Position numbers and translations under genes: made by a program
Part shown: piece by piece, positions 1-23,744 of the stretch
Layout: every line of letters starts with the position of its first letter
Position numbering within the stretch: the stretch's first letter is position 1
Source of the DNA: Polyangiaceae bacterium
GTDB lineage: Bacteria > Myxococcota_A > Polyangia > Polyangiales > Polyangiaceae
DNA length: 64,000 nucleotides
Direction: 5' to 3'
Assembly: GCA_033763455.1 (NCBI GenBank)
Contig: JANRKO010000033.1
Span: 160,001-224,000 of the forward strand
Notes under the pieces: model-generated
Database searches by the model: none
The model's input: only the letters and a program-made list of their open reading frames with translations
Told to the model about the DNA's origin: nothing

Positions 1-383
1 ACTTTGCACAGGTGAGGTCCTTTCCCCAGATTTGCGGAAGGCCTTGTTGTAGCAATCCCCCGCGCTCCGGGTAGCCAAGAATCAAACTTGGCGCCGCGAA
101 GTTGCACGCGAATTCGGTCACCAGCAAATCATTCCAATCTCAAAACACAGCTCACCGGATTTCGGACATGAGCTTATTGTTGAGCTCGACTCCACAACGC
201 ACAGATTCGAGCTGGGTGTGAATGATGAAGCGTGGCTATTCGAATGAGGATCGAGTGGTTTCCAACAGGAAACAGAAAGTTATGAGTCGCCAACCACTAA
301 CAATGGAGGCAAGGTGGCGGTGCCCGGCGTTGAGCCCGGACATCTCACAACCAAACCAAGCTAACGGATTACCGAGGTGCACC

Positions 384-1127
384 ATGGGTCGAAATGATTG
401 GCAGAAAGCCGCAAACGAGGAAAATTTCGTAGCCGTAAGTGGTGCTCCAAAAAAAGGCGGTGTTCTTCCCGTGCTCGGAAGCCTCTTGGCGCTCGGTGCA
501 CTCGGAGCACTCGTAAGCTACTACCTACCGCTCTATCGGGCTCACGAAACGCTGAACGGCGAATATGTGAAGCTTGCGATCCACAGCCGCGAACAGCAAG
601 AAAAGCTGAGCCAAGCCGGCACGGCATTAAGCCGTGTGGCGGCCGAACGCGACGCCTTGAAAGCCGAACGCGGAGGCAATCAGCAGGATGCGGAAACACG
701 CAAAGCCGCACTCCAAGCCCTTCAGAAAAGCTTAGAGGCAGCACTTGCTACGTCGACGGCCAAAAAGCTTATCGCGCTGAACGCTACGGAAACCGGAATC
801 GAAATTCAGTTCCAAAGCCCCAGCCTCTTCAAGAACGACGCCAGTGCGCCCACGCCCGCGGGCAAGGCGCTCCTCTGCAGCATCGCAAAGGCCGCGGGCA
901 AGGCCGTGCGTTTTGAAGTGGCAGGCTCCGCCGCCGCAAGCGAGGTTAAGAAGCCCGCCCTCAAGGCCTTCCCTTCTGCTTGGCACTTGGGTGTAGCGCG
1001 CGGCGCCAGCGCGGCTCAGGCGCTCGCTGAAACCTGCAAGCTTGCCGAAACTCAGTTGGTGGCTTCCGGCAAACCGGCAGGAGATGCCGCAAGTTCTGCT
1101 ATCCTCGCTCTCCGTCTCAGTCTGTAG
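384..1127 (+). CDS. OmpA/MotB-like membrane-anchored coiled-coil protein
   Basis: ATG at 384 with GAGGTG RBS. One TM helix (VLPVLGSLLALGALGALV), a coiled coil, then an OmpA/MotB-like C-domain (LF...TPAGKALL, FEVAGS, AWHLGVARG) with a degenerate peptidoglycan-binding motif. Confidence 0.6.
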   Translation: MGRNDWQKAANEENFVAVSGAPKKGGVLPVLGSLLALGALGALVSYYLPLYRAHETLNGEYVKLAIHSREQQEKLSQAGTALSRVAAERDALKAERGGNQQDAETRKAALQALQKSLEAALATSTAKKLIALNATETGIEIQFQSPSLFKNDASAPTPAGKALLCSIAKAAGKAVRFEVAGSAAASEVKKPALKAFPSAWHLGVARGASAAQALAETCKLAETQLVASGKPAGDAASSAILALRLSL

Positions 1128-1782
1128 TGGCAACCGGCTGAACAGCGCCGCGCCCGCGGGTGGCCGCTTGGGCACTTGTTCCCCACAGAGCCACCCTGCG
1201 CGTATCGTCCTTTAGGCGGGCCTTCTTTACACCCGAAATGCGGGGCTTCTCGGCGAGCTCACGCAGTTCCTTTTCCTCAGGCCAGTGAAACCCAGCCCCG
1301 CGCACACGCACCGTAAGAGGCGCCACAAGCGCCAAAGGCCGCTCGGTGAGCTCACTTTCTCGCAGTACGAGGCAGCTCTCCGAAACGCCAAAATGCTCGG
1401 CCAAGGGAGCACTCTTTTCGCCCACTACACTCTGCGCTCGAAAAAAACTTGTGCGGGGGATCAAAAGGCTCGCTGCGATACCTAAAGCGGCCTCGCTGGC
1501 TTCCTCAGGCTTGAGCGACGCTCGAGTAAGCCACCACTTCGCCAGCTCATAGGCTAGGGCCCAACGGCGCCGCACCGGAGGCAAGCTCGCACGCACGTAG
1601 ATGCGCGGAGCGCCGTTTACAGTGATGAGCCCACACTCGCGGTTGAGTGCTGGGGAGGTTACCAACACTGGCTTATGGCCGAGCAACTTGCACACGAGTG
1701 CCTCAGGCTGGACACGCTGGGCCCACTGTTGGCAGTGCTTCAGGAGAGCTTCGGAGATGCGTTCTTGTTCATTGAGCTTCAT
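1117..1782 (-). CDS. ImmA/IrrE-family (Peptidase M78-like) protein with degenerate zinc motif
   Basis: RIYVRASLPPVRRRWALAYELAKWWL aligns with the RxRFTLAHELGH consensus, followed by AASLLIP and LAEHFGVS (HTH-like). Start taken at MKLNEQ (1782). Confidence 0.7.
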   Translation of the reverse strand: MKLNEQERISEALLKHCQQWAQRVQPEALVCKLLGHKPVLVTSPALNRECGLITVNGAPRIYVRASLPPVRRRWALAYELAKWWLTRASLKPEEASEAALGIAASLLIPRTSFFRAQSVVGEKSAPLAEHFGVSESCLVLRESELTERPLALVAPLTVRVRGAGFHWPEEKELRELAEKPRISGVKKARLKDDTRRVALWGTSAQAATRGRGAVQPVATTD

Positions 1783-2063
1783 GCGCCGAAGAATTGCGCG
1801 ATCGCGCTGCCCCCGTCCATGTGATGTAGGACAAACAATGTCCCGCCGGCAGCTAAGGCCAGCCGCAACTAAGCGCTGCGTACGGAGGCTCTGTGCCGGT
1901 GTCGATCTAACGCGTGCGCTAAGCGCCAAGGGATTCGTGCCGGTGCTGTGGTTGGCTGTAAAGTGCGGCAAATAAACAAAACGCTCTGGCCGCAGCGCCA
2001 GGAGGTGCCCCGAAAAGCGGGAAATGGACACGGCTTGCCGGAAGGAATGATACAAGCCCTCGC

Positions 2064-3191
2064 GTGGAGAATAACGATGCCGAGCCAGGATTTGAGAGTC
2101 TTTCCGAGCTGGAGCTCACGCCCGAGATATTAAAAGGCTTTGAACAAGATCGCATCACTTCGCCCACCACCGTGCAACGGCTAGGGATCCCAGCAATTTT
2201 AGCTGGAAAAAACGTGGTATTGGCCTCCGGCACCGGCACCGGCAAGACGTTAGCTTACGCTCTCCCCATTCTCCAAAAGCTCCGCCATTCAACCGAAGGC
2301 CGCGCCCTCTGCATCACGCCCGCCACCGAGCTCGCCGTTCAGATCCAAAGGACGCTGGAGCGCTACAAAGATCCTGCTCTCAAGCTTGGAGCCTTGGTGG
2401 CTAGCGGGAACGTTAGAAAACAGCGCACTGACATTCAGAAAAGCACGCGCTTTATTGTGGGCACTACCGGCCGCGTGTTGGAGATGTACGCGGAAAGAAA
2501 GCTCAAGGGCGTGAACACGATTATCCTCGACGAGCCGGAGCCCGTGTTAGCCAGCAAAGGGGGCGAATTCTTGATGGAGGTGCTTTCGCGGCCTGAGCCG
2601 AAGCTGCAAATCATCCTCGCTGGCGCCACCATGGGCAGGCACGCCGAAGCCGTTATCGCTAAAGTGATGGGCAAAGACGTAGTGCGTCCGGAAATCGCTG
2701 AAAGCCCGCTGCACACCTTGATTCAACACTACTTCGTACCCGTGCGTGATCCTGCGCAGAAGGACCTCGCGATCGCGCGGTTCCTTCAGAACAATCGCTG
2801 CCGGCAGGTGATCTTATTCGTGAACCAACCCCATCTGATCCGGCATATTTTTCGCTTCCTCAAAGACTCCGGGGAATATCCCGTTACGGTGAGCCACGAT
2901 CGCTCGAAGGCCGACTGCAAGCAAGCCCTCATCGATTTTGCACAAGGCAACGTGAATGTGCTCATCACCACGGATCAAGCCGCCACGGGCCTCGACATTC
3001 CGGACATTGAATGGGTGCTGCACTACGAGCTACCAACATCGGCTCCAGGCTACCTGCATCGCGCCGGGCGCACTGGGCGTGCTGGCCGTTCTGGGTCTTC
3101 GGTGGTGTTTACCGTTGAAAGTGAGCGCGCGCTGATGCAGCGTTTCGGCCGTGAGTTGAAGCTGGAATTTCAGGCCTTCCCTCGGCACTAG
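2064..3191 (+). CDS. DEAD-box-like RNA helicase (motif II = DEPE)
   Basis: Q motif PTTVQ, Walker A SGTGTGKT, PATELAVQ, GTTGRV, DEPE, GAT, ATGLDI, motif VI HRAGRTGRAG. Confidence 0.9.
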   Translation: MENNDAEPGFESLSELELTPEILKGFEQDRITSPTTVQRLGIPAILAGKNVVLASGTGTGKTLAYALPILQKLRHSTEGRALCITPATELAVQIQRTLERYKDPALKLGALVASGNVRKQRTDIQKSTRFIVGTTGRVLEMYAERKLKGVNTIILDEPEPVLASKGGEFLMEVLSRPEPKLQIILAGATMGRHAEAVIAKVMGKDVVRPEIAESPLHTLIQHYFVPVRDPAQKDLAIARFLQNNRCRQVILFVNQPHLIRHIFRFLKDSGEYPVTVSHDRSKADCKQALIDFAQGNVNVLITTDQAATGLDIPDIEWVLHYELPTSAPGYLHRAGRTGRAGRSGSSVVFTVESERALMQRFGRELKLEFQAFPRH

Positions 3192-3214
3192 TACACACCA
3201 CCAAAGGGCGAAGG

Positions 3215-3517
3215 CTATTGCTGCCGGAGGTTCTGCATGTCGCGCTTGAGCTCGCGATCCAAGAAGAACGTTCCGCCTGGGATAAGCGAAAGCACGAATG
3301 CGCTGAGCCAGCGTCGCAACGGCCAATCCTGCGCAGTAGCTGCAGACACCAAGGCTCCGACGAATGCGATAAACAACGCCCCGTGCAACGCACCAACTAC
3401 TCGCACCGCGGCCGACTCGGCCCATATGTACTTGAGAGGCATTGCCACCAACAGCAAGACGAGGAAGGAGACGCCTTCGAGCAACGCAACCACCCGTAAG
3501 ACCATCAGGCCCCTCAC
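3215..3517 (-). CDS. DUF3817-family small membrane protein
   Basis: RVVALLEGVSFLVLLLVAMPLKY...GALHG...LSLIPGGTF. GTG start overlaps the GST stop (GTGA). Confidence 0.8.
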   Translation of the reverse strand: MRGLMVLRVVALLEGVSFLVLLLVAMPLKYIWAESAAVRVVGALHGALFIAFVGALVSAATAQDWPLRRWLSAFVLSLIPGGTFFLDRELKRDMQNLRQQ

Positions 3518-4152
3518 GAAGCCCTGGCCCCCGGGCGCGGCTGCCCCACAAAAGACTGAACACTTTTCCGCTCCCACGCACGATCAAAGTAACGCTCTAC
3601 CTCTTGGGGCAAGACATCACCGTTGAGCCGCAGCCGGCCAAGGGCCAGCGCCAGATCCGCATCGGCACAGCTGAACTCAGCAAAGAGCCAGGGCTCGTTT
3701 TGGATCAGCAACCGCTCCGTTAACCCAACCAGCTTCTCCGCATCCCGCAGGGCTTGCTCCGAAAGTGGCACGCTAGCGCGTTCGTAAAACATCGACTCCG
3801 TGGAGCGCTCTTTCCTGAGCTGAAATAGATCTGAACGTAAAAAGCCCATCACCTGCCGTGCCCGTGCGCGTTCACGAACCCCTCGCGGTAAACAAGGCGC
3901 GAAGGCTGGACTCGGAAAGCTTTCCTCCAGGTATTCCACGATGGCGAGAGATTCGCTGAGCCAGAAGCCCTCATGCTCGACCGTGGGCACGCGTGCCGTC
4001 AGCGAAGCGCCCGCAAATTCAGCACGCCTCTGATCTCCGCGCTCCAGATCTAAGACGGTGAACGTGAAGGGGACACCTTTTTCATTCAGAGCCACCCACA
4101 CCGTGAACACCCACGGGCTATCCCATTTGTGCTCAACGTAGAGGGTTACCAT
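3514..4152 (-). CDS. yfcF: Glutathione S-transferase (YfcF-like)
   Basis: SPWVFTVWVALNEKG, SLTARVP, LSESLAIVEYLEE, RARARQVM..LRSDL..L.KERST, FSCADADLA. Confidence 0.85.
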   Translation of the reverse strand: MVTLYVEHKWDSPWVFTVWVALNEKGVPFTFTVLDLERGDQRRAEFAGASLTARVPTVEHEGFWLSESLAIVEYLEESFPSPAFAPCLPRGVRERARARQVMGFLRSDLFQLRKERSTESMFYERASVPLSEQALRDAEKLVGLTERLLIQNEPWLFAEFSCADADLALALGRLRLNGDVLPQEVERYFDRAWERKSVQSFVGQPRPGARAS

Positions 4153-4189
4153 GCGAAGGCTCGTAACGAGGCAGAACGAACGCTAGCGA

Positions 4190-4873
4190 TTATTGGGTGT
4201 CTGCACCACCCGCACCACCCGCTGAGCCGCCCGGCAGACCGTTGATCCAATCTGCCACGCATTTGAGCTCCTCGCTGGTAAACGGAACCAACGGGGCGTC
4301 CTTCTTTTCAGGCTCCGGCATTTGCTGCCCGCACTCGGCGGGCGGAGTGCCCGCGAGCTTGATGTAGAGCAAGCTCGTTTCCGCGTCCCCTGGGACGACA
4401 ACGGTTCGAGTGGGGCAATTCAAGGTTGCCGTCTTCATTCCCATCTTGCCCACCCACCCTTCGAGCGAAGCCACGATATGAAAGCCATTGGGACCGAAGT
4501 GGCAATCATCGCAACGCCTCGCGTTGAATAACGCCGCCAGCGTTGCCGTATCGCAATTGGACAGATCGAGAACGGTACCCGCTCCACCGGTTACACCGGC
4601 GCCGCCCGTGCTCGTGCCACCACTCGCATTGCCTCCGCCCGTACCGCCCGCTGACGTGCCTCCCGACGACGCGCCCCCGCTCTTGGTGCCACCGCTGCCC
4701 CCAGAGCCCACTACAAGCATCCCGCCCGTTCCTGCTCCAGGCTTTCCTCCAGACGCTGCCCCTCCTGATCCAGAAGGTGTAACCACTGGGCTCCTACCGC
4801 CCGATTCATCGGAACAAGCTGCTGAGAGAGCCACCAAACCTACGAGCGCACAGATGGGAATGTTCAGGTTCAT
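4190..4873 (-). CDS. Lipoprotein with Gly-rich linker and c-type cytochrome domain
   Basis: Lipobox LSAAC, GGxxx linker, heme motif CDDCH, VVPGDAETSLLYIKL...QQMP...VADWI (planctomycete cytochrome C-like). Start at MNLNIP (4873). Confidence 0.75.
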   Translation of the reverse strand: MNLNIPICALVGLVALSAACSDESGGRSPVVTPSGSGGAASGGKPGAGTGGMLVVGSGGSGGTKSGGASSGGTSAGGTGGGNASGGTSTGGAGVTGGAGTVLDLSNCDTATLAALFNARRCDDCHFGPNGFHIVASLEGWVGKMGMKTATLNCPTRTVVVPGDAETSLLYIKLAGTPPAECGQQMPEPEKKDAPLVPFTSEELKCVADWINGLPGGSAGGAGGADTQ

Positions 4874-5133
4874 CGCGACGCGAAGCATGCCTGATCGTCC
4901 TCCGCCTTGCCACCAGATTTGCGACTGCATCGCACCTTGGGCGAAGACGCTGAACACTTCTCGAGTTTCCAGGAAAAACTGTCGCAAGCAGGCGGATTGC
5001 TTGGAATGGGCAGCTCGCACACCACCCGGATCCTTCAAGCTGGTGATTTTTCCGACATATTCCCACCCAAGTTTCGAATTGTCCTCCACTCCGTCAGCGC
5101 TAGATAGCCGGGAGGAACGGGAAGAAGTCGGCC

Positions 5134-6327
5134 ATGAACGTGCATCCACAAGCTACCTCGAAGCTAAACCGCGCCGTCGACTTGGCGCAGCTCCAAGCGC
5201 AAATTCGTACGCTGATAACGCTTGAGGAGACGGAAACGCCTGTAATCAGCTGCTACGTGCGCCGTGTGGTTCGCCCCGATGGTGGCGAAATTCCCGAATT
5301 TGCGCACCGCTTACAAGCGATTCGGAACGTGTTGCGCGGCAAGGAGCTCGAGCAATTCGAAGAAAGGTTCGCTCGGGTCCAGAGCTACCTCAGCTCAGAT
5401 CTGCTGCCAAAAACACAGGGAATTGCCATATTCGCGCGCGGCGGGCGGAGCCCGTTCTTTATGGCGCTGGAGTTTGAGGTGCCTCTTCCGAACCGGCTCT
5501 CGGTGAATTCAACCCCCGACGTTTACCACCTGGTGGAGCTGAAAGACACATATCACCGCTTCGTGGTCCTTATTTCCACAGAGCATAGCGCTCGCATCTT
5601 GGAGGTGAACCTAGGAACCATTTCGCGTCAGCTCTGGGCGGAACGGCCCGAGCTCCGAAGCCGCGTAGGGAAAGAATGGACGCACGATCACTACCAAAAT
5701 CATCGACGGGATCGTGGCGAGGAATTCATGCAAGAGAAGATTGCGCTGGTTGAAAGGTTGATGGCGGCGGAAGGCCACACTCACCTGATTTTGGCGGGTG
5801 TGCCACACCTTGCCCAGCGCGTACGCGAGCGGCTCCCTAAGCACATTCAGGACAAAATAATGGATGTTGTCCCTACGCCAGAGTACGCGGGCGTTGTGGA
5901 TGTGGTTGCGAGCACGTTGTCAGCTTTCATTCAAGGGATTCAGGCTCAGTCGCACAGTGCGGCGTGGAAACTCGAAGATGCACTCCGAACGGGAGGGTTA
6001 GCCGTATGCGGCACCGAAGCCACGTATGAGGCCCTCCGCCAAGGTCAAGTGGACGTGCTGGTGATGGCGCGCGAGTACGACGGCAGCATCGCCTGGCATT
6101 GCCCGAAGTGCGGGTGGGCGCAGACCGTGCATGTGCGTCCCCCCATATGCCCAGATTGCGAACACCAAGAGCTCCGCACGGTGAATCTGAAGGAAGAGAT
6201 GATCCGCACAGCGGAGCGGCAAGGGGTGAAGCTCGAATTGGTACAGCAAAGCGAAACGCTGCTGCGGCTTGGGGGCATTGGATGTCTGCTCCGCTGGGAA
6301 AGGAAACCAAACTGGTCTGATTCGTGA
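5134..6327 (+). CDS. aeRF1/baeRF-family release-factor-like protein with zinc ribbon (Balon-like)
   Basis: PVISCY N-domain, GIAIFA, RNaseH-like middle domain (FVVLISTEHSARILEV, LILAG), eRF1 domain 3 (GGLAVCGTEATYEALRQGQVDVLV...GGIGCLLRW), CPKC...CPDC insert. Confidence 0.8.
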   Translation: MNVHPQATSKLNRAVDLAQLQAQIRTLITLEETETPVISCYVRRVVRPDGGEIPEFAHRLQAIRNVLRGKELEQFEERFARVQSYLSSDLLPKTQGIAIFARGGRSPFFMALEFEVPLPNRLSVNSTPDVYHLVELKDTYHRFVVLISTEHSARILEVNLGTISRQLWAERPELRSRVGKEWTHDHYQNHRRDRGEEFMQEKIALVERLMAAEGHTHLILAGVPHLAQRVRERLPKHIQDKIMDVVPTPEYAGVVDVVASTLSAFIQGIQAQSHSAAWKLEDALRTGGLAVCGTEATYEALRQGQVDVLVMAREYDGSIAWHCPKCGWAQTVHVRPPICPDCEHQELRTVNLKEEMIRTAERQGVKLELVQQSETLLRLGGIGCLLRWERKPNWSDS

Positions 6328-7121
6328 ACATGCCCAAGTCCACTTTGCGCGGCCGCCTGCAATCGCTGGTCGAACACCCACGTTTCGATCAGATCGTGGT
6401 AGCAATCATCGTGGCTAACGCCATCATTTTGGGGCTAGAAACCTCCGCTGACCTCACCGCGCGTTTCGGGGGCTTGCTCCGAATACTAGACCACACGGCG
6501 CTCCTCTTCTTCGTGCTTGAGCTAATGCTTAGAATGTTCGTTTATCGCGGTCGATTCTTGCGAGATCCGTGGCGAGTGTTCGATCTATTGGTGGTCGGCA
6601 TTGCACTTTTCCCTGCAAGCGAAGTGTTTAGCGTCCTCCGAACGCTGAGAGTACTGCGCGTCTTGCGCTTGGTGTCTATAGTGCCATCTATGCGCCGTGT
6701 TGTGAGTGCGTTGCTCACGGCGCTACCAGGCATGGCGTCCATCATGGGGCTCATGTCGCTCTTGCTTTACGTTTCTGCAGTTGCGGCTACCAAGCTTTTT
6801 GGAGCCATCGCGCCTGAGTATTTTGGTGGATTTGGCGCCTCGCTCTTCACTCTTTTTCAGATAATGACGGTCGAAGGCTGGCCCGATATAGCGCGCACCG
6901 TAATGGAGAAGTCACCCTACGCATGGGTGTTCTTCGTGACATATCTTCTCATTGGGACGTTCATGGTGCTCAATCTCTTCATTGCTGTTGTGGTGAATGC
7001 CATGCAGGCAAAAGTGGCCGAAGATCTCAAGGACGAGGGGGACGCACACACCCAGCAAATCCTGAGCGAGTTGCGCAGCGTGCGTCAGGAGCTTGAGGCA
7101 CTGCGGAAGCACCAAAGCTAA
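6324..7121 (+). CDS. Voltage-gated cation channel (BacNav/AnclNav, 6TM ion transport protein)
   Basis: S4 LRTLRVLRVLRL, DPWRVFD, pore FTLFQIMTVEGWPD, S6 LNLFIAVVVNAM, C-terminal coiled coil. GTGA overlap with the upstream gene. Confidence 0.92.
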   Translation: MNMPKSTLRGRLQSLVEHPRFDQIVVAIIVANAIILGLETSADLTARFGGLLRILDHTALLFFVLELMLRMFVYRGRFLRDPWRVFDLLVVGIALFPASEVFSVLRTLRVLRVLRLVSIVPSMRRVVSALLTALPGMASIMGLMSLLLYVSAVAATKLFGAIAPEYFGGFGASLFTLFQIMTVEGWPDIARTVMEKSPYAWVFFVTYLLIGTFMVLNLFIAVVVNAMQAKVAEDLKDEGDAHTQQILSELRSVRQELEALRKHQS

Positions 7122-7189
7122 CCGGGGTGCAAAGTGGCGATTTTCTAGAAACGATGGCGGAGCTGAGCAAGACGTCCTAGATATCCTGC

Positions 7190-7702
7190 GTGGCAAACGA
7201 ACGTTCCAGTGAACTTTTTGCACCCACGGAGCCGCCCGTACCCCGGTGGGTTGAGCAATGGGTTAAGCTTTCGGAAACTGCCTGGGTTCTACCGGGGACG
7301 AACCTTCGCTTCGGGCTTGATTCGGTGCTGGGCTTCTTGCTGCCGGGCCTGGGAGACTGGATTTCATCAATGGCTGCGCTGGGAATGATCGGTGAAGCCG
7401 CGCGGCGGCAGGTCCCCGTGTCTGTGCTTGTTCGTATGCTAGTCAACGTGATGCTCGACACGGCGTTGGGCAGCATTCCTCTGCTCGGCGATGTTTATGA
7501 CTTTTTCTTTCGTTCCAACACAAAGAACCTAGAGCTCTTCCGCCGGCACTCGGGGCCCATTCTGCCAACTGGGGAAGCCACCCGTCGGCTTGTCTTGGCC
7601 CTGGGCCTCATCGTGGCCACAGCGGCCGTCCTTTTCTGGGTGAGCGTCATGGGCCTGGTATCGCTGGCACTTTGGGCATTCTTGCGCGAAAAGCTGAGCT
7701 GA
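7190..7702 (+). CDS. DUF4112-family membrane protein
   Basis: LPGTNLRFGLDSVLG.LLPGLGD, RMLVNV.LD.ALGSIPLLGDVYDFFFRSNTKN. Confidence 0.85.
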   Translation: MANERSSELFAPTEPPVPRWVEQWVKLSETAWVLPGTNLRFGLDSVLGFLLPGLGDWISSMAALGMIGEAARRQVPVSVLVRMLVNVMLDTALGSIPLLGDVYDFFFRSNTKNLELFRRHSGPILPTGEATRRLVLALGLIVATAAVLFWVSVMGLVSLALWAFLREKLS

Positions 7703-7706
7703 TCAT

Positions 7707-7739
7707 CTGTAGGTATTACCTACAGTTTAATTCTTTTTT
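7707..7739 (+). terminator. Palindrome followed by T-rich tract (intrinsic terminator or operator)
   Basis: CTGTAGGTA-T-TACCTACAG at 7707-7725, then TTTAATTCTTTTTT, starting 4 nt after the DUF4112 stop. Confidence 0.6.
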
Positions 7740-7793
7740 GTCCTCTTGTTCTACGTTCTCCAGGCCTCATGCTTAGAGTCAGAAGGGCCAGCC

Positions 7794-8930
7794 ATGCGTA
7801 ACTCTCTGCGAATCGGTTCAATGTTTGGAATTCCTGTATTGGTGCACGTTAGCTTCTCGCTGATCGTGCTCCTCGGGGCCGTCCAAGGCGGCGTCGCTCA
7901 CGGGTCAAGAGGCATCTTGTTCGGTGTGGCGAGCATGCTGATTATCTTTGCTTCCGTAGTGCTCCACGAGCTAGGGCATGCACTCATGGCTCGGCGCTTT
8001 GGCATTCAAACGGTCGACGTAACGCTCTATCCACTCGGCGGTATTGCCAGGATGAGCGGGGAGGCGAAGAGCCCATGGCAGGACGTAGCTATTTCAGTCG
8101 CCGGACCAGCGGTGAACCTGCTGCTCTTCATTGGCATCGCAGCTATTGGTCTTCAGATGGGCTTCATCTCAGCTGATATTCCGAAGTCTCTAGGTGCTAC
8201 GCCTCAGGGCTTGTTGCTGGTGGGCCTTACCGCCAATCTCATGTTGTTCCTGTTCAATTTGCTTCCCTTCTTTCCGCTTGATGGCGGCCGGATCTTGCGT
8301 TCTTTGCTGACGCTCAAAGTTGGGGCATCACGCGCCACACTCTGGGCGGCGCGCACTGGCCAAGCCGGCGCCGTTGCAATTGGACTTTTCGGAATACTCT
8401 CAGGCAACCTGCTAACGGCTCTGGTGGCGGGCTTCCTGTTTATCTCCGCATCTCAAGCGCTCGCTCAATCTCAGTTTGAAAGTGCCACGGCACACGTTAC
8501 TGTCGGTGAGGCCTATGAGCGTGGGAGTATTATCCTAGAGCCCGCCATGCAGTTGCATGCCGCGTTTGAGACACTGAGGCATTCGTCCCAGGTAGCCTTC
8601 CCGGTGGCTCTTGAAGGGCAGCTTCTTGGCGCGATTCACCGAGACGAGCTACTTGCCAAGCAATTGGCAAATGAGAGCCACGGGTACGTGTCGAGCATCA
8701 TGCATCGCAGCCTCCCTGAGTTCGCTTCAAACGCCCCACTCGGCGGCTTTCTGGAGCTCGCCAAAGAGAACCCGCGCGTAATTGCAGCGGTCAGAGAAGA
8801 AGGGGCACTCTTAGGGTTCCTGACGCTAGAGCATGTGCTCAAGAGCCGAATTTCGACGCCCCCAGCACCAGAGCCTGGGGGGAAGACTCCTGCGGGCACG
8901 CGTGGCGTGCTTGGTGAAGATCGCAGCTAA
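7794..8930 (+). CDS. Site-2 protease (peptidase M50) with CBS domains
   Basis: HELGH, AGPAVN, FNLLPFFPLDGGR, and a C-terminal CBS pair (FPVALEGQLLG; AVREEGALLGFLT). Confidence 0.9.
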   Translation: MRNSLRIGSMFGIPVLVHVSFSLIVLLGAVQGGVAHGSRGILFGVASMLIIFASVVLHELGHALMARRFGIQTVDVTLYPLGGIARMSGEAKSPWQDVAISVAGPAVNLLLFIGIAAIGLQMGFISADIPKSLGATPQGLLLVGLTANLMLFLFNLLPFFPLDGGRILRSLLTLKVGASRATLWAARTGQAGAVAIGLFGILSGNLLTALVAGFLFISASQALAQSQFESATAHVTVGEAYERGSIILEPAMQLHAAFETLRHSSQVAFPVALEGQLLGAIHRDELLAKQLANESHGYVSSIMHRSLPEFASNAPLGGFLELAKENPRVIAAVREEGALLGFLTLEHVLKSRISTPPAPEPGGKTPAGTRGVLGEDRS

Positions 8931-8948
8931 AGGACCGGAACAAGAAAA

Positions 8949-10151
8949 ATGTTAGACCTTCAACTACTCGCTCAAACCGCGGCCGTGGCGCCCGACCCCA
9001 AGCTGATTGCTCACGGCTTGTTTCTCTTGATGGTGGTGGCATTTCTTGCCCTTGACCTCGGCGTATTCCATCGCGATGCGCACGAGGTTTCAATGAAGGA
9101 GGCGCTCACCTGGTCTGTTATTTGGGTAACGTTGGGTCTTGCGTTTTCGCTAGTCGTCTATGCTGCCTATGAGGGTCAGTGGTTCAGCTTAGGCGCCAAC
9201 ACTGCGCTCTATAACCCCGCTGCCAACACGGACCCTGCGGCTCCGCTACTTATCACCGGCACCGTCAGTGGGTTTGAGGCCGCCAAGCAGTACCTCACGG
9301 GCTACGTGGTGGAAAAGTCCCTCGCGATGGACAACATCTTCGTAATCGCGATCCTCTTCGGGTATTTCGCCGTGCCGGCAAAGTACCAACACCGAGTGCT
9401 ATTCTGGGGTATTCTCGGGGCGCTCGTAATGCGCGGTGCGATGATCGCCGTCGGCGGTAGCTTGATTCTTCAGTACCAGTGGGTGCTCATTATCTTCGGC
9501 CTCTTCCTCTTGCTTACCGCAGTCAAGATGGTGTTCGCGGGTGAGGAGAAAGATCCCACCAACAATCCCGTTGTGCGGCTAATGAAGCGTATTTTTCCGG
9601 TCACCGAGTTTTACGACGGCCAACGTTTCATTACCAAGCGCACCCTCGCGCCCACTTACAGCCGCGATCCGAACACTGGCAAAGAAGTTCAAGACCCGCC
9701 TCCAGCTGGCACACTCAGAGCCCGCTGGGCCATCACGCCGCTGCTTTTGGTGCTTGTCTTGGTGGAGATCACCGACCTCGTCTTCGCGGTCGACAGCATT
9801 CCCGCCATCTTCGCGATAACTCCAGACCCGTTTATCGTCTTTACGAGCAACGTTTTCGCTATATTGGGCCTGCGTTCGCTCTATTTTTGCCTGGCGGCCT
9901 TGATTTCAAAGTTCCGCTTCTTGAAGCCTGCGCTCATCCTCATCTTGGCCTTCGTTGGCGTAAAGCTCCTGTTGCTTAGCGTCCCCCCATACCTCGACGA
10001 CATGGGTGCGATATTTGGAGTCGCCCTCGAAGCCGGTAGCGCCATCAAAGTGAGCACCACGCTGTCGCTCTCTGTTGTCCTAGGGTTGCTTGCGAGTGCC
10101 GTTATCGCTTCTATCCTTGCCCCATCACCCAAAGAGGCAAAGAGCAGCTAG
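8949..10151 (+). CDS. TerC/Alx-family metal homeostasis membrane protein
   Basis: LALDLG, GYVVEKSLAMDNIFV, QHRVLFWGILGAL, DLVFAVDSIPAIFAIT, FTSNVFAILGLRSLYF. Confidence 0.92.
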   Translation: MLDLQLLAQTAAVAPDPKLIAHGLFLLMVVAFLALDLGVFHRDAHEVSMKEALTWSVIWVTLGLAFSLVVYAAYEGQWFSLGANTALYNPAANTDPAAPLLITGTVSGFEAAKQYLTGYVVEKSLAMDNIFVIAILFGYFAVPAKYQHRVLFWGILGALVMRGAMIAVGGSLILQYQWVLIIFGLFLLLTAVKMVFAGEEKDPTNNPVVRLMKRIFPVTEFYDGQRFITKRTLAPTYSRDPNTGKEVQDPPPAGTLRARWAITPLLLVLVLVEITDLVFAVDSIPAIFAITPDPFIVFTSNVFAILGLRSLYFCLAALISKFRFLKPALILILAFVGVKLLLLSVPPYLDDMGAIFGVALEAGSAIKVSTTLSLSVVLGLLASAVIASILAPSPKEAKSS

Positions 10152-10190
10152 GCTGAAGGTCCCCACGTTGCGGCTAGCCGGGTTCCCCGG

Positions 10191-10397
10191 TTAGCCGGCT
10201 TCGCGGAAGTGGCACGGCTCACTTTTCCGAACTTGTTCCAATTCTTCGTCCAGAATTTCGGCGATGGTGCCCTCGCAGCCACCGCACCCGCCGCCCGCGC
10301 CACAGGTTCGTGTGACGCCCGCAGAAGTCCGTGCTCCCAACGATATGGCTCGTCGCACCTCACGATCATTCACGCCCAAGCAATGACAGACAATCAC
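10191..10397 (-). CDS. bfd: Bacterioferritin-associated [2Fe-2S] ferredoxin
   Basis: MIVCHCLGV...GAGGGCGGC (CxC...CxxC), 68 aa, divergent from bfr. Confidence 0.88.
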   Translation of the reverse strand: MIVCHCLGVNDREVRRAISLGARTSAGVTRTCGAGGGCGGCEGTIAEILDEELEQVRKSEPCHFREAG

Positions 10398-10416
10398 AGC
10401 GCTTGGAGTGTAGCTT

Positions 10417-10435
10417 ATTGAAAATGACTTTCAAT
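10417..10435. promoter_or_regulatory. Fur box (deltaproteobacterial type)
   Basis: ATTGAAAATGACTTTCAAT has perfect 7-bp arms and matches WTGAAAATNATTTTCAW. It lies 19 nt upstream of bfd, in the bfd/bfr divergent spacer. Confidence 0.8.
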
Positions 10436-10705
10436 ATCAATTTGTCGAGGCGAGTATAGATCGGATTTTACTGAATCATATTGAATGCTTAACCCATAGG
10501 GGAGCACCTCCCATGCCATGGTATCCAGGGGACGCAGGCCCACCAGCCTATTGGGCCTCCCCGCCGCCCTCCCCGCCTTCTGGGCTCGAGAACAGAGGAT
10601 CAGCAGCGTGAATCATTCGCGCTGCGCCCCACACAACTCCTACAAGAACGCGCGGTAACTTCTAGCTAGACTCGACTCCCACCTTTCAACCCGACGGACC
10701 ACCTC

Positions 10706-11176
10706 ATGCAAGGTAACGCCAAAGTCATCGAAACCCTGAACGAAGTTCTAACTTCCGAGTTAACGGCAATAAACCAATACTTCATTCACTTCAAGCTCTG
10801 TAAAAATTGGGGATATCCGCGCATCGCGCACAAGAAGCGAGAAGAATCCATCGAGGAGATGAAACACGCCGACGAAATCATCGAACGCATCCTATTTCTC
10901 GGTGGCATCCCCAACATGCAACGCATGAATCCCGTGCGCGTGGGTGAACGCCCAGATGAGCAACACCGGCTCGATCTTGCGCTTGAGGTGGAAGCGGTGG
11001 AGCGCCTCAATCGTGGCATCGAAGAAGCACGCTTGGCGGCGGACAACGGCACCCGAGCTCTCTTGGAAAAAATCCTCAGTAATGAAGAGGAATCTATTGA
11101 TTGGCTCGAAACACAGCTGCACTTGATCGGCGAGCTGGGCCTTGAACGCTACCTAGCGGAGCAAACGCACTCTTGA
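10706..11176 (+). CDS. bfr: Bacterioferritin
   Basis: ELTAINQY, EEMKHAD (heme Met52), RILFLGGIPN. E94 and E127 are present, but position 130 is Ser. Confidence 0.95.
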   Translation: MQGNAKVIETLNEVLTSELTAINQYFIHFKLCKNWGYPRIAHKKREESIEEMKHADEIIERILFLGGIPNMQRMNPVRVGERPDEQHRLDLALEVEAVERLNRGIEEARLAADNGTRALLEKILSNEEESIDWLETQLHLIGELGLERYLAEQTHS

Positions 11177-11210
11177 TTTCAAGGGCTAGGCCCGAAAGAG
11201 AGAGGTTCGC

Positions 11211-12515
11211 ATGAAGCTTCGGCGCAACGTCGTGGTGATTGGTGGGGGGTTCGGTGGCCTCGCATTGACGCGTGAGCTCGCCAAAATGCCCGTCCACGTA
11301 ACGCTTGTGGATCGGTCGAATCACCACCTCTTTCAGCCTCTGCTCTATCAGGTCGCAATGGCAGGCCTTTCTCCTGGGGAGATTGCAGTGCCCATTCGCT
11401 CGGTGCTGAGCAAGCAGGAGAACGCTCGTGTTCTTTTGGCCGAAGTCACCCACGTGGATCTGGAAGCGCGCCAGGTTCACACTCAACAAACCAAGCCGCT
11501 GCCGTACGACTATTTGGTAATAGCTACTGGGGCTCGCAATAGCTATTTTGGGAACGATACGTGGGCGCAGGCGGCACCCGGCCTGAAAGATCTGGATGAT
11601 GCCATAGAGATCAGGCGGCGTGTTCTCTTGGCTTTTGAGGCGGCCGAACTCGAAGCTGACCCCACGTTGCAGCAACGATACCTCACGTTTGTGGTGATCG
11701 GCGGTGGGCCCACAGGGGTGGAATTGGCGGGCGCAATAGCCGAGCTTGCTACGTTTGTTTTGGCCCGTGATTTTCGCTCCATTCATTCGGACAGAACTCG
11801 CGTGGTGCTTGTTGAAGGCGGCGAGCGCATATTGGGCAGCTTCGCCCCGGAGCTTTCGGTTCGCGCGCGGCAAAGTCTGGTCGACATGGGAGTGGAGGTG
11901 CGCTCAGGGCTGAGAGTCACAGCTATCGACGCGGGGGGTGTTTCATGTGGGGATGAGCGCATAGAAACTGCCACTGTGCTTTGGGCCGCAGGCGTTGCAG
12001 CCTCCCCCTTGTGTAAAAGCCTGGGGTTCGAAGTGGATCGCCAAGGAAGGGCCAAGGTTGAGCCTGATTGTTCGCTCCCTCAACTGTCCGAAGTCTTCGT
12101 GATTGGAGATGCCGCTTGCTTCATTCCGAAAGGCACCGCCATACCCCTACCCGGCGTAAGCCCCGTAGCTATGCAACAGGGCCGCTTCGTTGCACGGCAG
12201 ATCGCCCGCAGCTTAGAGGGAAAACCTCGCGAACAGTTCGAGTACCTGGATAAAGGCTCCATGGCCACCATCGGCCGTCGCCGCGCCGTCGCTCAACTCG
12301 GCAAGCTCAGGCTCTCAGGGTTTGTGGCCTGGCTTGCGTGGCTCTTCGTACACATCTTCTACCTCATCGACTTTCGCAATCGTCTCGTCGTGCTTTTGGA
12401 TTGGACATTCGCCTATTTTTCGTACCGACGCGGCTCGCGGCTGATAACTGGACGCCGATTGCAGGCCGGCGCACCTGAGGTCACCCACCCTAAGCCGGCC
12501 CCGTCGCACCTTTAG
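11211..12515 (+). CDS. ndh: Type II NADH dehydrogenase
   Basis: IGGGFGG, HLFQPLLYQVA, IGGGPTGVELAG, WAAGV, VFVIGD, DKGSMATIGR. Confidence 0.92.
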   Translation: MKLRRNVVVIGGGFGGLALTRELAKMPVHVTLVDRSNHHLFQPLLYQVAMAGLSPGEIAVPIRSVLSKQENARVLLAEVTHVDLEARQVHTQQTKPLPYDYLVIATGARNSYFGNDTWAQAAPGLKDLDDAIEIRRRVLLAFEAAELEADPTLQQRYLTFVVIGGGPTGVELAGAIAELATFVLARDFRSIHSDRTRVVLVEGGERILGSFAPELSVRARQSLVDMGVEVRSGLRVTAIDAGGVSCGDERIETATVLWAAGVAASPLCKSLGFEVDRQGRAKVEPDCSLPQLSEVFVIGDAACFIPKGTAIPLPGVSPVAMQQGRFVARQIARSLEGKPREQFEYLDKGSMATIGRRRAVAQLGKLRLSGFVAWLAWLFVHIFYLIDFRNRLVVLLDWTFAYFSYRRGSRLITGRRLQAGAPEVTHPKPAPSHL

Positions 12516-12547
12516 CCTTCTCGGCGCCCCCCCCGCCGATTGACGCC

Positions 12548-13861
12548 TCAGCGCTTCCCCACTTCGCGCTGAGCTTGATTCCAGGCGTCACGCTGCTTGG
12601 AGAGTGAATCCTTAAGTGAGCGCGCTTTCGCCTCTGCCTCCGCCGCCGCCGATACGTCGATGGAAAGCTCCCCGTTCCCAGCGAACTCGGACGTGACGTT
12701 CAAAGGAGTGGGGATCAGATCGAACTGGAGGAATGGACGCACCCGCGTTGCCGATCCATCAACAAGCACTAGCGTATCGGCGAGCACAGGCTCATCCGCT
12801 ACGCTCACGGGGCTTGAATCGCTGAGTGGTAAGACACGGTTGAAGAACCCAAAGGTGACCGGACCCGTCTCATCGGAGACAAGATAATAGTGAAGACTAC
12901 CGATGGTCACCCACGCGGGGCCGTGATTGGCAACTGTCATAGTCAAGCCCGAAGCGCTCGCGCACAGGTTTTTCGGAAGCACTTTGGTGCTCGCCTTCGC
13001 GGATGCAAGCGGCGTATCCATCTGCAATTCGACCTGCGCGAGAGAAGTAAACACATCGCCAACGACGGAAGTGATACCAAAAAAGTATCCCGTTTCGTTG
13101 GTCTGCAAACAGGTGGACGAATAAATCCCCGAAGTGCCTCCCACCGATCCCTCGACGTAGGTGACCGTTTCGGTGGCGAGAGCCACGCCGTTGCTGTTCT
13201 GTAGCGCGCTCGCCTTGGTGGAGTGAAAGCACGCTGTTCCGACTCCCGTGTACGTGATGGGAATGATCCACTGCACGTAGGTGCTGCCTACATAGGAACG
13301 AGTGGCATAACCTTGACCAAGCGTGTACGGCGGGAACGTGCCTGGGCTGAATTTGGCTGTAATTGGCTTGCGCAATTGGCTGTTGGGAGTTGTACCCGAC
13401 CCCAAGCTTAGCCCGCGAAATTCAGCCGAATTGCCGCCGAGCTCAACGGGAGGGCTGCCGGATACGCTGCCCACTACAGGCCCCTTGCAGTTGTACTCCG
13501 CGCCAAGATTCGGGATCGCCGGCGAATTCTGCACTCCGCCCGTGCCCACAGAACCACCGACATTCGAACCGCCCGGTCCGGAACCACCGCTCACCGAACC
13601 ACCAGCATTCGAACCGACTGCGGCCGAACCACCGCTCACCGAACCCCCAGCATTCGAGCCACCCGTTGAGACCGAGCCACCCGTCGTGGAATTGCCGGAA
13701 ACATTCGTAGCGGCGCCCCCGGAAGCCGCGCCGGCAGCCGCACTACCTGACCCCGTGGCGTGTTCCTTTCCCCCACATGCTGCAAGAAGAAGGGCAGCTG
13801 CAGTGAGTCCAACGAGCGACGAACGACGAGAATCAAGAGTTAAGCATTTTGAACGAGTCAT
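12548..13861 (-). CDS. Hypothetical lipoprotein with Gly/Ser-rich linker
   Basis: Lipobox LLAAC, GGSVSGGS repeats (45-bp period at about 13581/13626), beta-rich C-domain. Start uncertain. Confidence 0.65.
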   Translation of the reverse strand: MTRSKCLTLDSRRSSLVGLTAAALLLAACGGKEHATGSGSAAAGAASGGAATNVSGNSTTGGSVSTGGSNAGGSVSGGSAAVGSNAGGSVSGGSGPGGSNVGGSVGTGGVQNSPAIPNLGAEYNCKGPVVGSVSGSPPVELGGNSAEFRGLSLGSGTTPNSQLRKPITAKFSPGTFPPYTLGQGYATRSYVGSTYVQWIIPITYTGVGTACFHSTKASALQNSNGVALATETVTYVEGSVGGTSGIYSSTCLQTNETGYFFGITSVVGDVFTSLAQVELQMDTPLASAKASTKVLPKNLCASASGLTMTVANHGPAWVTIGSLHYYLVSDETGPVTFGFFNRVLPLSDSSPVSVADEPVLADTLVLVDGSATRVRPFLQFDLIPTPLNVTSEFAGNGELSIDVSAAAEAEAKARSLKDSLSKQRDAWNQAQREVGKR

Positions 13862-13967
13862 GCCGCGAGCAATAGCAAGGGCACACTGCGCACCACAATC
13901 AGGAGAAACCCTTGGTTTTGTCGAAATATCTAAAACCATGCACGCGCTTTCCCGCCTCAATGAAACT

Positions 13968-14639
13968 TCAGAAATACTTTTCCAAAAACACAGCCTCCTC
14001 CGTGGAGAGCGACGCCTCACCCGTGATCATCGCCACGGATGGCAAGAACCGCTGGTGCTCTCCGCTGAGCTCCCTAAACCCATGCCGCGCGTAGAACGCC
14101 GGATTCACCTCGCAAAAGAGCATAAAGCGAACGCTCTCCTCTTGAAAACGCAGGAGCTCCATTACCGCACGCACCAAGCGCGACGCGTGCCCGCAGCCAC
14201 GATGTTCAGGCGTCGTGGCAACCGATGCAATACCAACTAACCCCTGTCGAAAACGCAAAGTATTGAGCGAGGAAAGTGGAGTACCGTTCAAGTCTTCAAG
14301 TAAGTATCGAGTCCCACGCTGGTGATTCAAGCTCTGCTCGTAACTTGCAACAAACTCATCAAGGGTCCGCCCCTCGCTCCAGGCATCGTAACCAAAACGC
14401 AACACGGTGGCATTATCTTCTGGTTGGACGACACGCACATGCGCGATCGGCGCGAAACGTTCACCACCATCGTCCAACCGCCCCTCAAACATCGCCTGCG
14501 GGCGCACCCAATTGCCAGAGGGTGGGTCGCCGTACAAGCAGCGGTACACCACCAGCTGTGACGTATCTTCGGAGTGAACTGCGACGCCAAGTCGCAGGTA
14601 GTCTCGGCCCTTATAGTGGCGATACAGCGTCCAGCTCAT
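13968..14639 (-). CDS. DUF1653 - GNAT acetyltransferase fusion
   Basis: N-terminal YRHYKG.DY...AVHSE...VVYRCLY...WVRP..MF. C-terminal IASVATTPEHRGCGHAS and FYARHGF. Confidence 0.82.
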   Translation of the reverse strand: MSWTLYRHYKGRDYLRLGVAVHSEDTSQLVVYRCLYGDPPSGNWVRPQAMFEGRLDDGGERFAPIAHVRVVQPEDNATVLRFGYDAWSEGRTLDEFVASYEQSLNHQRGTRYLLEDLNGTPLSSLNTLRFRQGLVGIASVATTPEHRGCGHASRLVRAVMELLRFQEESVRFMLFCEVNPAFYARHGFRELSGEHQRFLPSVAMITGEASLSTEEAVFLEKYF

Positions 14640-22244: not shown

Positions 22245-23744
22245 CTAGGCCCGGATTTCGGAAATTGCGCCCCTGCTAATCATCGGATCACCGAAGTTCG
22301 CATCGGGCAGGCCATACGCGTTCAAGATCGTGGTCAAAAGATCGTTGATGTAGCGCATGTTCGTTGGATCGAACTCTGGAATCGGATCAGTAGTTAGCGA
22401 ATTGCTATCGATGATCCTAATATGCCGGCCAGTCTTGAAGTACTTGTTGAGATTGCCAAGCAATACGAGCGGAATGTTGATGCTCGCGTGGCTGTTGCCC
22501 TGACCCATATTGGTGGTCCAAAGCAGGAGCGTGTTGTCGTAGACGGCATGCTGCTTGAGCTTCTCTTGCAGCTTGAATACCTGCCCGGCGTTCCACGCGC
22601 CAACGTTAATGAAATTCTGAACATCCTCCCACCAGCTCATGGAGCCAGGATCATTTGGGTCCATCTCGTAAGGCACCTGCCCAGGAGTGAGCCAAATGTG
22701 CGAGAGATCGTGCCAACGTGCTCGTTGCCCTGGGATCCAGGTGAACACTAGGTTGTTCCCTTCTTCGTTCATTTGAAACGTGATTATGCGTGTGAGGTCG
22801 CAGGCAAAAGCCATTGCGCCCAGGTCCATCATTACGTCGGCAATTTGGGGCTGCAAGGCTAAGTATTGCTCGTTGATCTCGCCGTTAGTTGGAAAAAGAT
22901 CCGCCGGGTAAGCCGGGGTCATGCACGAAACCGTGGGTTGGGAAACAATATCGATGCGTTGTTCTACACTGCGAAAAGCCTCAAGGTACTGGTCGAGCTT
23001 CTGCCGATCCAAGGTGCTGAGCGATGGTCTCAACGTTTCTGCGTGTTGAATCGCCGCGTCCAAAACTGACTTCTGACGCGCGCGCAGCATGTCGGCCGAA
23101 AAGGTGGGTGCCGTCGCTGCGGGCGCCACTACTTGGGAGCTCGGAAAAAGCTTGTTGAAAACGTTGCGCGGGTTCTCCATTGCGGGAACAGACTGGCCTT
23201 TGTCAATCCACGACACGGCACTCTTGGTTCCCGCTGCCGTAACGATCACGCCAAGCTGGAGGTTCGGAAATCGCATGGTCTTGTCGTGGCCAAGTTGTTT
23301 CGCGAGGTAGTGATCGAGCGAAATGCCTCCGCCGGTAACTTCGGTGTCGCTGATCTCGAGCGGCTCGTACCCATTCAAAATGCTGCAGTAACCGTCGTGG
23401 TTAGAGCCAGCGTTCTGCAACCCCTCCAGAATGAGCATTTCACTCCGCACCGACTCGAGTGGCTTGAGGGTCTCGGTGAATTCGAAGTTAGGGTTGTCGA
23501 GGGGGCCAACACCAGATCGCGGATACAGGTCGATCGTACCCGACCGCTTGTCGTATTGGGACTTACCAGGTTCCGGTGGCCAGAAGGCATCCCCAAACAT
23601 CGAGAAAGGCTGGTGATAGGTGATAAAGCGCGGTGGCGACACTGCCTGAGCACTCGCCACTCGCATACCCTCGAGCAATGGCAGGGCTATCATGCAGCCT
23701 GCACCGCCTTGAAGTAAGGTTCGTCTCGATATTTTTCGACGCAT
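22245..23744 (-). CDS. DUF1552 (HXXSHH)-family Tat-exported protein
   Basis: SRRTLLQG Tat motif, ALPLLE.M, SLDHYLA, PRNVFNKLF, SVLD, D..KLDQYL, AFACDLTR, WHDLSH, NSHAS. Confidence 0.88.
   Translation of the reverse strand: MRRKISRRTLLQGGAGCMIALPLLEGMRVASAQAVSPPRFITYHQPFSMFGDAFWPPEPGKSQYDKRSGTIDLYPRSGVGPLDNPNFEFTETLKPLESVRSEMLILEGLQNAGSNHDGYCSILNGYEPLEISDTEVTGGGISLDHYLAKQLGHDKTMRFPNLQLGVIVTAAGTKSAVSWIDKGQSVPAMENPRNVFNKLFPSSQVVAPAATAPTFSADMLRARQKSVLDAAIQHAETLRPSLSTLDRQKLDQYLEAFRSVEQRIDIVSQPTVSCMTPAYPADLFPTNGEINEQYLALQPQIADVMMDLGAMAFACDLTRIITFQMNEEGNNLVFTWIPGQRARWHDLSHIWLTPGQVPYEMDPNDPGSMSWWEDVQNFINVGAWNAGQVFKLQEKLKQHAVYDNTLLLWTTNMGQGNSHASINIPLVLLGNLNKYFKTGRHIRIIDSNSLTTDPIPEFDPTNMRYINDLLTTILNAYGLPDANFGDPMISRGAISEIRA

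Follow-up and report, generated by a model that had tools for sequence, protein, structure and literature searches.

A baeRF family 10 gene overlapping a voltage-gated channel gene in a Polyangiaceae bacterium, and the cation-transport neighbourhood of its family

A 64,000-nucleotide stretch of a Polyangiaceae genome (contig JANRKO010000033.1, positions 160,001 to 224,000; hereafter the window) contains, at 5134..6327 on the forward strand, a gene for a release-factor-like protein of 397 amino acids (aa) belonging to baeRF family 10 (Pfam PF18854). The gene runs from an ATG start to a TGA stop at 6325-6327, and the four bases GTGA at 6324-6327 hold this stop together with the GTG start of a voltage-gated cation channel gene (6324..7121, forward strand), as the first-pass annotation of this sequence had reported. 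Coordinates were read from the list of open reading frames (ORFs) and from the raw sequence. Genes of family 10 are linked with ion-transport genes across many bacterial phyla, and at least one inorganic-cation transporter or channel (pump, antiporter or channel) was found in 51 of 80 related loci, a channel related to that of the window being present in only seven. With moderate confidence, the protein is read here as a stress-induced ribosomal A-site factor that would be co-expressed with a set of membrane proteins serving cation and alkali stress.

The related loci were obtained by scanning the genomes of 185,579 species with the alignment of the family. This returned 226 relatives, of which the best 80 loci were used, with up to 6 kb on each side of the gene. 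All 80 are contigs of metagenome-assembled genomes from many phyla, their genes were called as simple ORFs, and at least 3 kb of downstream sequence was available in 60. The first-pass annotation had suggested a stress module connecting the membrane with translation. Its link with ion transport proved real, but the dominant surroundings of the family are an NhaR-like regulator, HPF, Usp and TerC rather than Ca2+ signalling.

Relation of the protein to Balon and archaeal aRF1

In a profile search the protein matched baeRF_family10 strongly (63.4 bits against a cut-off of 27.1, E 3.5e-17) and eRF1_3 weakly, and PF18854 was carried by 120 of 120 homologues among the matches listed. Its earlier assignment to the aeRF1/baeRF proteins without a GGQ motif was therefore correct. 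No GGQ is present in the protein, whose middle-domain loop reads HDHYQNH, and no NIKS decoding motif was recognised; the part of the family profile that lines up with the NIKS motif of the archaeal release factor aRF1 (4af1) is variable, in an alignment that is itself weak (domain i-Evalue 6.1). The family accounted for 1,084 matches at E <= 0.001 among 8,000 scored candidates from a 90%-clustered set, and among 1.84 billion 50%-identity representatives there were 1,809 matches at E <= 1e-3, 811 at E <= 1e-10 and 178 at E <= 1e-30. Longer fused forms of the factor (696-2000 aa) were absent at E <= 1e-10, which is weak evidence on this point. According to PMC6514570, bacteria with baeRF proteins retain the classical RF1 and RF2. 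One of the related loci (L075) encodes a second baeRF paralogue at 3769-4647, with families 7, 6 and 3 as its best Pfam matches; it lies about 1.3 kb upstream of the family 10 gene, and an NhaR-like gene sits between the two.

An AlphaFold2 model built on 46 homologues had a mean predicted local distance difference test score (pLDDT) of 74, with residues 160-194 below 50. When the model was compared with the PDB using Foldseek, the top match was aRF1 (4af1, E 2.5e-20), followed by the Balon protein Msmeg1130 (8v9j_z, E 6.2e-18) and then by eukaryotic eRF1 and Pelota, the matches ranging from E 2.5e-20 to about 1e-8. TM-scores to the solved relatives reached only about 0.4, probably reflecting differing orientations of the domains in a three-domain protein. 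The Foldseek and profile matches together give the aeRF1 architecture, namely an N domain, an RNase-H-like middle domain and a Pelota-like C domain. On the sequence level, the only solved relatives at E < 0.1 were Msmeg1130 (1.2e-5), aRF1 (0.024) and, by a match to the zinc ribbon, a rubrerythrin.

Balon, Msmeg1130 and Rv2629 (PMC10901736; NF052287-NF052289) belong to the same aeRF1 superfamily, share the three-domain fold and likewise have neither NIKS nor GGQ. The description of the window protein as Balon-like holds in so far as its nearest solved sequence is Msmeg1130, but its scores fall far below the cut-offs of all three Balon-type NCBIfam equivalogs (NF052287, 17.3 against 330 bits; NF052288, 48.6 against 480; NF052289, 33.9 against 320), and it keeps a zinc ribbon. 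Judged by sequence, it is a distant cousin of Balon that stands outside these three families. In comparison with aRF1 (4af1, 3ir9), which is the top structural match and whose C domain aligned to the family profile at E 1.2e-12, family 10 has HY[Q/R]xH in place of GGQ and does not conserve the NIKS region, as far as the weak alignment tells; aRF1 is archaeal, whereas the host of the present protein is bacterial.

The ribbon consists of C323, C326, C339 and C342, the CPKC...CPDC pair that the first-pass annotation had quoted, and its four cysteines are invariant in the 46-sequence alignment. It aligns with the CxxC...CxxC of the Methanosarcina aRF1 3ir9 at an identical insertion site, while Msmeg1130 has no cysteine in the aligned stretch. 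Balon's C-terminal domain carries a beta-hairpin insertion that contacts EF-Tu (PMC10901736); thus Balon has an EF-Tu-binding hairpin where the window protein keeps the four-cysteine ribbon of the aRF1 type. Among the 80 loci the CxxC...CxxC pattern was found in 64 and was missing in 16, and in two of the latter (L055, L066) the gene looks broken or frameshifted. Ribbon-less family 10 proteins of about 345-395 aa are encoded in L021, L026, L029, L038, L045, L050 and L053, as well as in L061, L067, L068 and L070-L073. Since the ribbon is missing in a subset of the family, it has been lost within family 10.

Cation-homeostasis and ribosome-associated genes around family 10

For the analysis of gene neighbourhoods, ORFs up to three genes upstream and up to four genes downstream, 493 in all, were clustered and the cluster representatives were named with Pfam; the residual representatives that reached 110 aa, 261 in number, were scanned against Pfam as well. 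Hidden Markov models (HMMs) of the 15 largest clusters were then compared with all ORFs of 60 aa or more in the 80 loci, at E <= 1e-8 and within 6 kb. At least one recurrent category of neighbour was present in 69 loci. The most frequent was an NhaR-like LysR regulator (33 of 80 loci), which in 27 loci lies upstream on the opposite strand, followed by TerC (25 loci, in 20 of them downstream on the same strand) and a tandem universal stress protein, Usp (25). HPF was present in 18 loci, several of its genes overlapping the factor gene or lying within 75 nt of it. A sigma-54 response regulator also occurred in 18 loci, a histidine kinase in 14 and a type-II P-type ATPase in 12, the one ATPase checked scoring best as a Ca2+ pump. 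Less frequent were M48/HtpX-like proteases (nine loci), Mrp antiporters, M50-CBS proteases and CNNM/CorC proteins (six each), and Na+/H+ exchangers, Na+/Ca2+ exchangers and DUF302 proteins (five each). NhaA, TMEM175, a CDF transporter, MpsC, BON, SPFH/Band 7/flotillin-like proteins and FtsH were single cases. A reverse-transcriptase (RVT_1) ORF was seen about 1 kb downstream of the family 10 gene in one locus (L013:8072-8827).

The identity of the regulator was examined against NCBIfam, where the NhaR model NF008284 was the best match for 32 of the 33 LysR proteins. Nineteen reached its curated cut-off of 219 bits, nine full-length proteins scored 200-217 bits, and four fragments still matched NhaR best; the one protein with no match is a 90-aa fragment. 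Genes for NhaR, HPF, TerC and BacNav channels normally occur once or a few times in a genome. From these general-knowledge copy numbers, chance placement of such a gene within 6 kb would be expected in well under 1% of loci.

Some of these associations have precedents. Linkage of baeRF genes with HPF is reported in PMC6514570, and at the family level the Balon-type factors share with family 10 a stress-operon setting and HPF/RaiA neighbours. The cation-homeostasis neighbours differ in this respect: a search of the text of PMC10901736 for TerC and ion channels found neither. In Escherichia coli, according to PMC10003395, deletion of nhaR changed the levels of RMF and of 100S ribosomes, and Na+ likewise influences rmf and 100S ribosomes. 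The ribosome factor of that system is RMF, whereas here it is an aeRF1-type protein linked to NhaR by gene order alone, in the 33 loci mentioned above, the window itself being without an NhaR-like gene. For alkaliphiles, it is stated in PMC4225499 that cation/proton antiporters receive Na+ through Nav channels.

The middle-domain loop and the proposed role of the factor

The loop that the first-pass annotation had singled out, RSRVGKEWTHDHYQNH, is present in the translation as quoted and lies within the conserved loop residues 165-194. Conservation was counted over 81 sequences, the window and the 80 loci. These contain no insertion or deletion in the loop and follow the consensus W-x3-P-x-L-R-x-R-V-G-x-x-W-x3-H-Y-[Q/R]-x-H-R-R, with P172 and W182 each kept in 80 of 81, R177 in 79 and Y187 in 77. 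Position 188 is Gln in 64 sequences, including the window; Arg takes its place in 13, and the remaining four have His, Glu or Ala. As the strictest residues are aromatic and basic, and the exchange of Gln for Arg is tolerated, this pattern would fit contact with RNA better than catalysis, and it weakens a catalytic interpretation. In PMC6514570 this region is described as poorly conserved in the broadly distributed baeRF families, in contrast to the highly conserved loop of fixed length in family 10. A profile alignment of the loop with GGQ was attempted and gave no match, the alignments beginning only after the loop.

By homology with its two solved relatives, both of which dock in the ribosomal A site, the baeRF10 protein would dock there too. 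Its conserved basic and aromatic loop would most likely grip rRNA near the peptidyl-transferase centre without catalysing release. The factor would then silence or protect ribosomes during ionic stress, caused by Na+, alkaline pH or divalent cations, and would be co-expressed, probably through co-transcription, with membrane proteins that restore ion balance. The ionic nature of the stress is suggested because in other phyla the family genes adjoin the NhaR-like regulator, HPF and Usp, and because their neighbours include TerC, Na+/H+ and Mrp antiporters, P-type ATPases of the Ca2+ type and, repeatedly, the channel.

Several observations weigh against this reading. PMC6514570 singles out family 10 for its well-conserved, potentially catalytic Gln, and that residue is still found in most of the sequences, the window among them. 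With a pLDDT below 50 for the loop, the model leaves its placement with respect to GGQ uncertain. The whole 64-kb window yielded no NhaR-like, HPF or Usp gene, NhaR having been sought with an HMM made from the regulators of the loci at E <= 1e-4; the regulon is therefore borrowed from relatives. In the census, 11 of 80 loci have none of the recurrent neighbours, every locus derives from a metagenome-assembled genome with simple ORF calls, and the enrichment of neighbours rests on general-knowledge copy numbers without a matched background control.

The possibly catalytic Gln also makes unsafe the step from a missing GGQ to ribosome hibernation, which the first-pass annotation had taken. The alternative that fares best, though it is judged unlikely, is that of an active peptidyl-tRNA hydrolase. 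Alongside membrane quality-control proteases, it would rescue ribosomes that stall when the cell is under ionic stress or membrane stress, for instance on mRNAs of membrane proteins. It would account for the retained Gln and for a loop free of insertions and deletions, since a constrained loop length is given in PMC6514570 as a mark of active families, and for the M48/HtpX-like and M50 proteases near the factor in nine and six loci, respectively, and the single cases of FtsH, SPFH/Band 7 and flotillin-like genes. However, the Gln is not preceded by Gly-Gly, the motif being HYQ; it is replaced in 17 of the 81 sequences, 13 times by Arg; no NIKS-like decoding motif could be discerned in the weak alignment; and the linkage with HPF, seen in 18 of 80 loci, speaks for silencing and not for release.

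A broader proposal, distinctly unlikely on present evidence, is that family 10 is a cation-responsive A-site factor forming the translation arm of a widespread response to Na+, alkali and divalent-cation stress. In that case the invariant loop, with its many His, Glu, Trp and Arg residues, would sense ion status or pH at the peptidyl-transferase centre, and some lineages would be wired to a CavMr-like channel and TerC, so that cation entry and ribosome silencing would form one unit. If true, this would constitute a bacterial link between membrane excitability and translation.

The channel gene, its surroundings and the significance of family 10

The protein encoded at 6324..7121 (265 aa) is a single-domain voltage-gated cation channel of the BacNav family with six transmembrane segments. 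It matched Pfam Ion_trans at E 2.4e-42 over profile positions 2-235 of 241, its residues 10-261 aligned with NavAb-type chains at E about 1e-64, and it also matched T-type Ca2+ channels domain by domain. Together with the six-segment Ion_trans fold it has an arginine ladder in S4 (RTLRVLRVLR) and a selectivity filter of the form T-x-E-x-W. The filter itself, TVEGWPD, includes glycine at position 4 (Gly4) and aspartate at position 7 (Asp7), with proline at position 6. According to PMC7041947, the native Ca2+-selective channel CavMr has the filter TLEGWVD, in which Gly4 is the key determinant of Ca2+ selectivity, Val6 contributes and Asp7 is dispensable; the V6T mutant lost selectivity. Judged from that published filter, the two channels share the form T-x-E-G-W-x-D with Gly4 and Asp7 and differ at positions 2 and 6, which are Leu and Val in CavMr and Val and Pro in the window channel. 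The earlier annotation as a Ca2+ channel thus gains from Gly4 and loses from Pro6, and naming the protein a putative Ca2+ channel is a fair guess from its sequence.

Homologues of the channel lie downstream of the factor gene, on the same strand and within 3 kb, in the seven loci noted above. Direct adjacency, through a TTGA overlap, is confined to two of the 80, L001 and L002, which are contigs of metagenome-assembled Polyangiales/Polyangiaceae and the closest relatives of the window (about 80% protein identity). In L004, L006, L012, L016 and L027, labelled Myxococcales, Thermoanaerobaculia, Cytophagia, 'bacterium' and Acidobacteriota, the channel is 1.4-2.8 kb away. Conservation of the pairing, which the first-pass annotation had made a test of its reading, therefore extends to same-strand linkage but not to immediate adjacency beyond close relatives. 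When the channel of the window was aligned with the seven linked ones, three divergent groups emerged, with 34-86% identity to the window channel and with filters TVEGWPD/TAEGWPE in five of the eight channels, TLEGWVE in one and TFDNWSS in two. A quick maximum-likelihood tree was built from 79 factor sequences (L064 and L065 were omitted as too short); eight of its rows carry the channel trait, which needs at least five changes. TerC is present in all seven channel-holding loci and in the window. In the nearest sister loci (L004:7173-7529, L075:7190-7555 and L003) an HPF-like gene overlaps the baeRF10 stop by about 10 nt, occupying the slot taken by the channel in the window, L001 and L002.

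As a consequence of the 4-nt overlap, channel synthesis would depend on translation of the factor, and both proteins would be made together through translational coupling. An in-frame ATG at 6330 offers an alternative channel start in the window; neither L001 nor L002 has such an ATG. A reading that goes considerably further, and is quite improbable, makes the pair a dedicated module for signalling: the channel would open on depolarisation, and an influx of Ca2+ (or Na+) would directly switch the factor on and stop translation. This reading draws on the overlap kept in three relatives (the window, L001 and L002), on Gly4 in six of the eight aligned channels (the window and five of the seven linked ones), as in CavMr, and on channel linkage recurring in at least five places on the tree; the conserved loop residues E181, E/D185, H186 and H190 have helical spacing, and cation binding by them is speculation. 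Against this stand the low number of loci with a channel (seven of 80, with at least 3 kb of downstream sequence in 60), the occupation of its slot by HPF in the nearest sister loci, the absence of an EF-hand or other known Ca2+-binding domain from the factor in Pfam and NCBIfam scans, and a proline at filter position 6 instead of the valine that CavMr also needs. Nor does co-expression entail a signalling link. That the adjacency is a lineage-specific accident of gene order, with factor and channel acting independently, is the least probable reading of all: direct adjacency in two of 80 loci, both close relatives, DUF4112 in a single locus and a window devoid of the regulators found elsewhere would agree with it, but in distant phyla the factor has same-strand linkage with channels of three divergent lineages, TerC accompanies every channel, and the shuffled gene order among the channel loci argues against simple inheritance of one arrangement.

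The channel gene is followed, after a 68-nt gap (7121 to 7190), by a gene for a DUF4112 membrane protein of 170 aa with a GTG start (7190..7702, forward strand; Pfam PF13430, E 9.1e-27) and by a terminator-like hairpin with a T-rich tail (7707..7740), both in agreement with the first-pass annotation. The hairpin (7707-7725) is a perfect 8-bp stem with a 3-nt loop, followed by TTTAATTCTTTTTT, and folds at -10.1 kcal/mol (z = -3.3), one of 200 shuffles being equally good. A hairpin with a different stem is found at the corresponding place in L001 (-9.9 kcal/mol, z = -3.2), despite the absence of DUF4112 there, while L002 has none (z = -0.08). A consensus terminator scan of 4000-11000 gave 13 terminator-like sites against 6.6 +/- 2.6 in shuffled sequences, so that a hit from such a scan alone is weak evidence of a terminator. 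The three-gene unit proposed earlier is therefore bounded by a hairpin that recurs in L001, but DUF4112, with a homologue in only one of the 80 loci (L002), is lineage-specific rather than a conserved part of it.

Downstream on the same strand lie genes for an M50 membrane metalloprotease with CBS domains (7794..8930; Pfam Peptidase_M50, E 1.7e-22, and a CBS match) and, 18 nt after its stop, for a metal-homeostasis membrane protein of the TerC/Alx family (8949..10151; Pfam TerC, E 1.2e-52; NCBIfam TIGR03718, the TerC/Alx subfamily, 388 bits against a cut-off of 246.4). The M50 ORF is open from TTG 7746, but its likely start is ATG 7794, as this is kept in the window, L001 and L002. The intergenic stretch before it (7734..7793) is nearly invariant in a three-way alignment of these sequences and may be a promoter or leader of a second unit; GAAGGG at 7782-7787 looks like a ribosome-binding site. 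The recurrence of the hairpin in L001 and this near-invariant stretch suggest, with low certainty, two adjacent same-strand units, baeRF10-channel-DUF4112 and M50/CBS-TerC, rather than one five-gene operon. A scan of window positions 1-14000 against Rfam at E <= 1 found no RNA element, hence no yybP-ykoY or other riboswitch ahead of TerC. A known defence system was considered and rejected, PADLOC models giving no match for the five genes and the upstream ORF.

That upstream ORF (4190-5149, reverse strand) is divergent from the factor gene and encodes a long Gly/Ser/Thr-rich region with a lipoprotein-like signal (...LVALSAAC). Comparison with Pfam, NCBIfam and PADLOC gave no match for it, and its annotated start overlaps that of baeRF10, the real one probably lying near 4873-4888. 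Genes for a bacterioferritin (TIGR00754, 193 bits) and an NDH-2 type oxidoreductase occupy 10706-12515, directly downstream of TerC and on its strand, and a gene of the MgtC family (37520-38005, reverse strand) was the one further cation-related gene to be noticed in the window. At 22245-23798 and 28481-30232 (reverse strand) are genes for a DUF1552 (HXXSHH) protein and a PSD/PSCyt-domain protein (DUF1592, DUF1588, DUF1587, DUF1595, DUF1585), with domains named after Planctomycetes. The remaining genes of the window are ordinary chromosomal ones.

Family 10 is already described computationally (Pfam PF18854; PMC6514570). The literature search yielded no description of its NhaR, TerC, Usp and cation-transport context, nor of a recurrent link with a voltage-gated channel; the supplementary neighbourhood tables of PMC6514570 were outside that search and may list some of these neighbours. 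It also yielded no experiment on the family and no baeRF or Balon-type gene beside a channel, TerC or NhaR, in agreement with the first-pass annotation, which knew of no description of the pairing. Term look-ups in PMC10901736 and in the preprint 10.1101/2025.11.04.686544 did not return the pairing, and no mention of a release-factor-like neighbour was found in the available parts of the CavMr, AnclNav and NavAb channel papers.

Factors of the Balon type have been recognised only since 2024, and starvation or cold is the condition with which hibernation factors are usually associated. Family 10 represents an uncharacterised branch of the Balon/aeRF1 proteins with distinct structural features and a specific stress context. 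As it differs from Balon in its zinc ribbon and conserved loop, it may bind the ribosome or EF-Tu differently. Its recurrent neighbours suggest a trigger, namely Na+, alkaline pH or cation imbalance acting via the NhaR-like regulator, while a translational switch triggered by Ca2+ is hypothetical. To our knowledge, the role of voltage-gated channels in bacteria is largely unknown outside alkaliphiles, and a conserved genomic partner, TerC in every channel locus and baeRF10 here, would provide a handle on the physiology of these channels.

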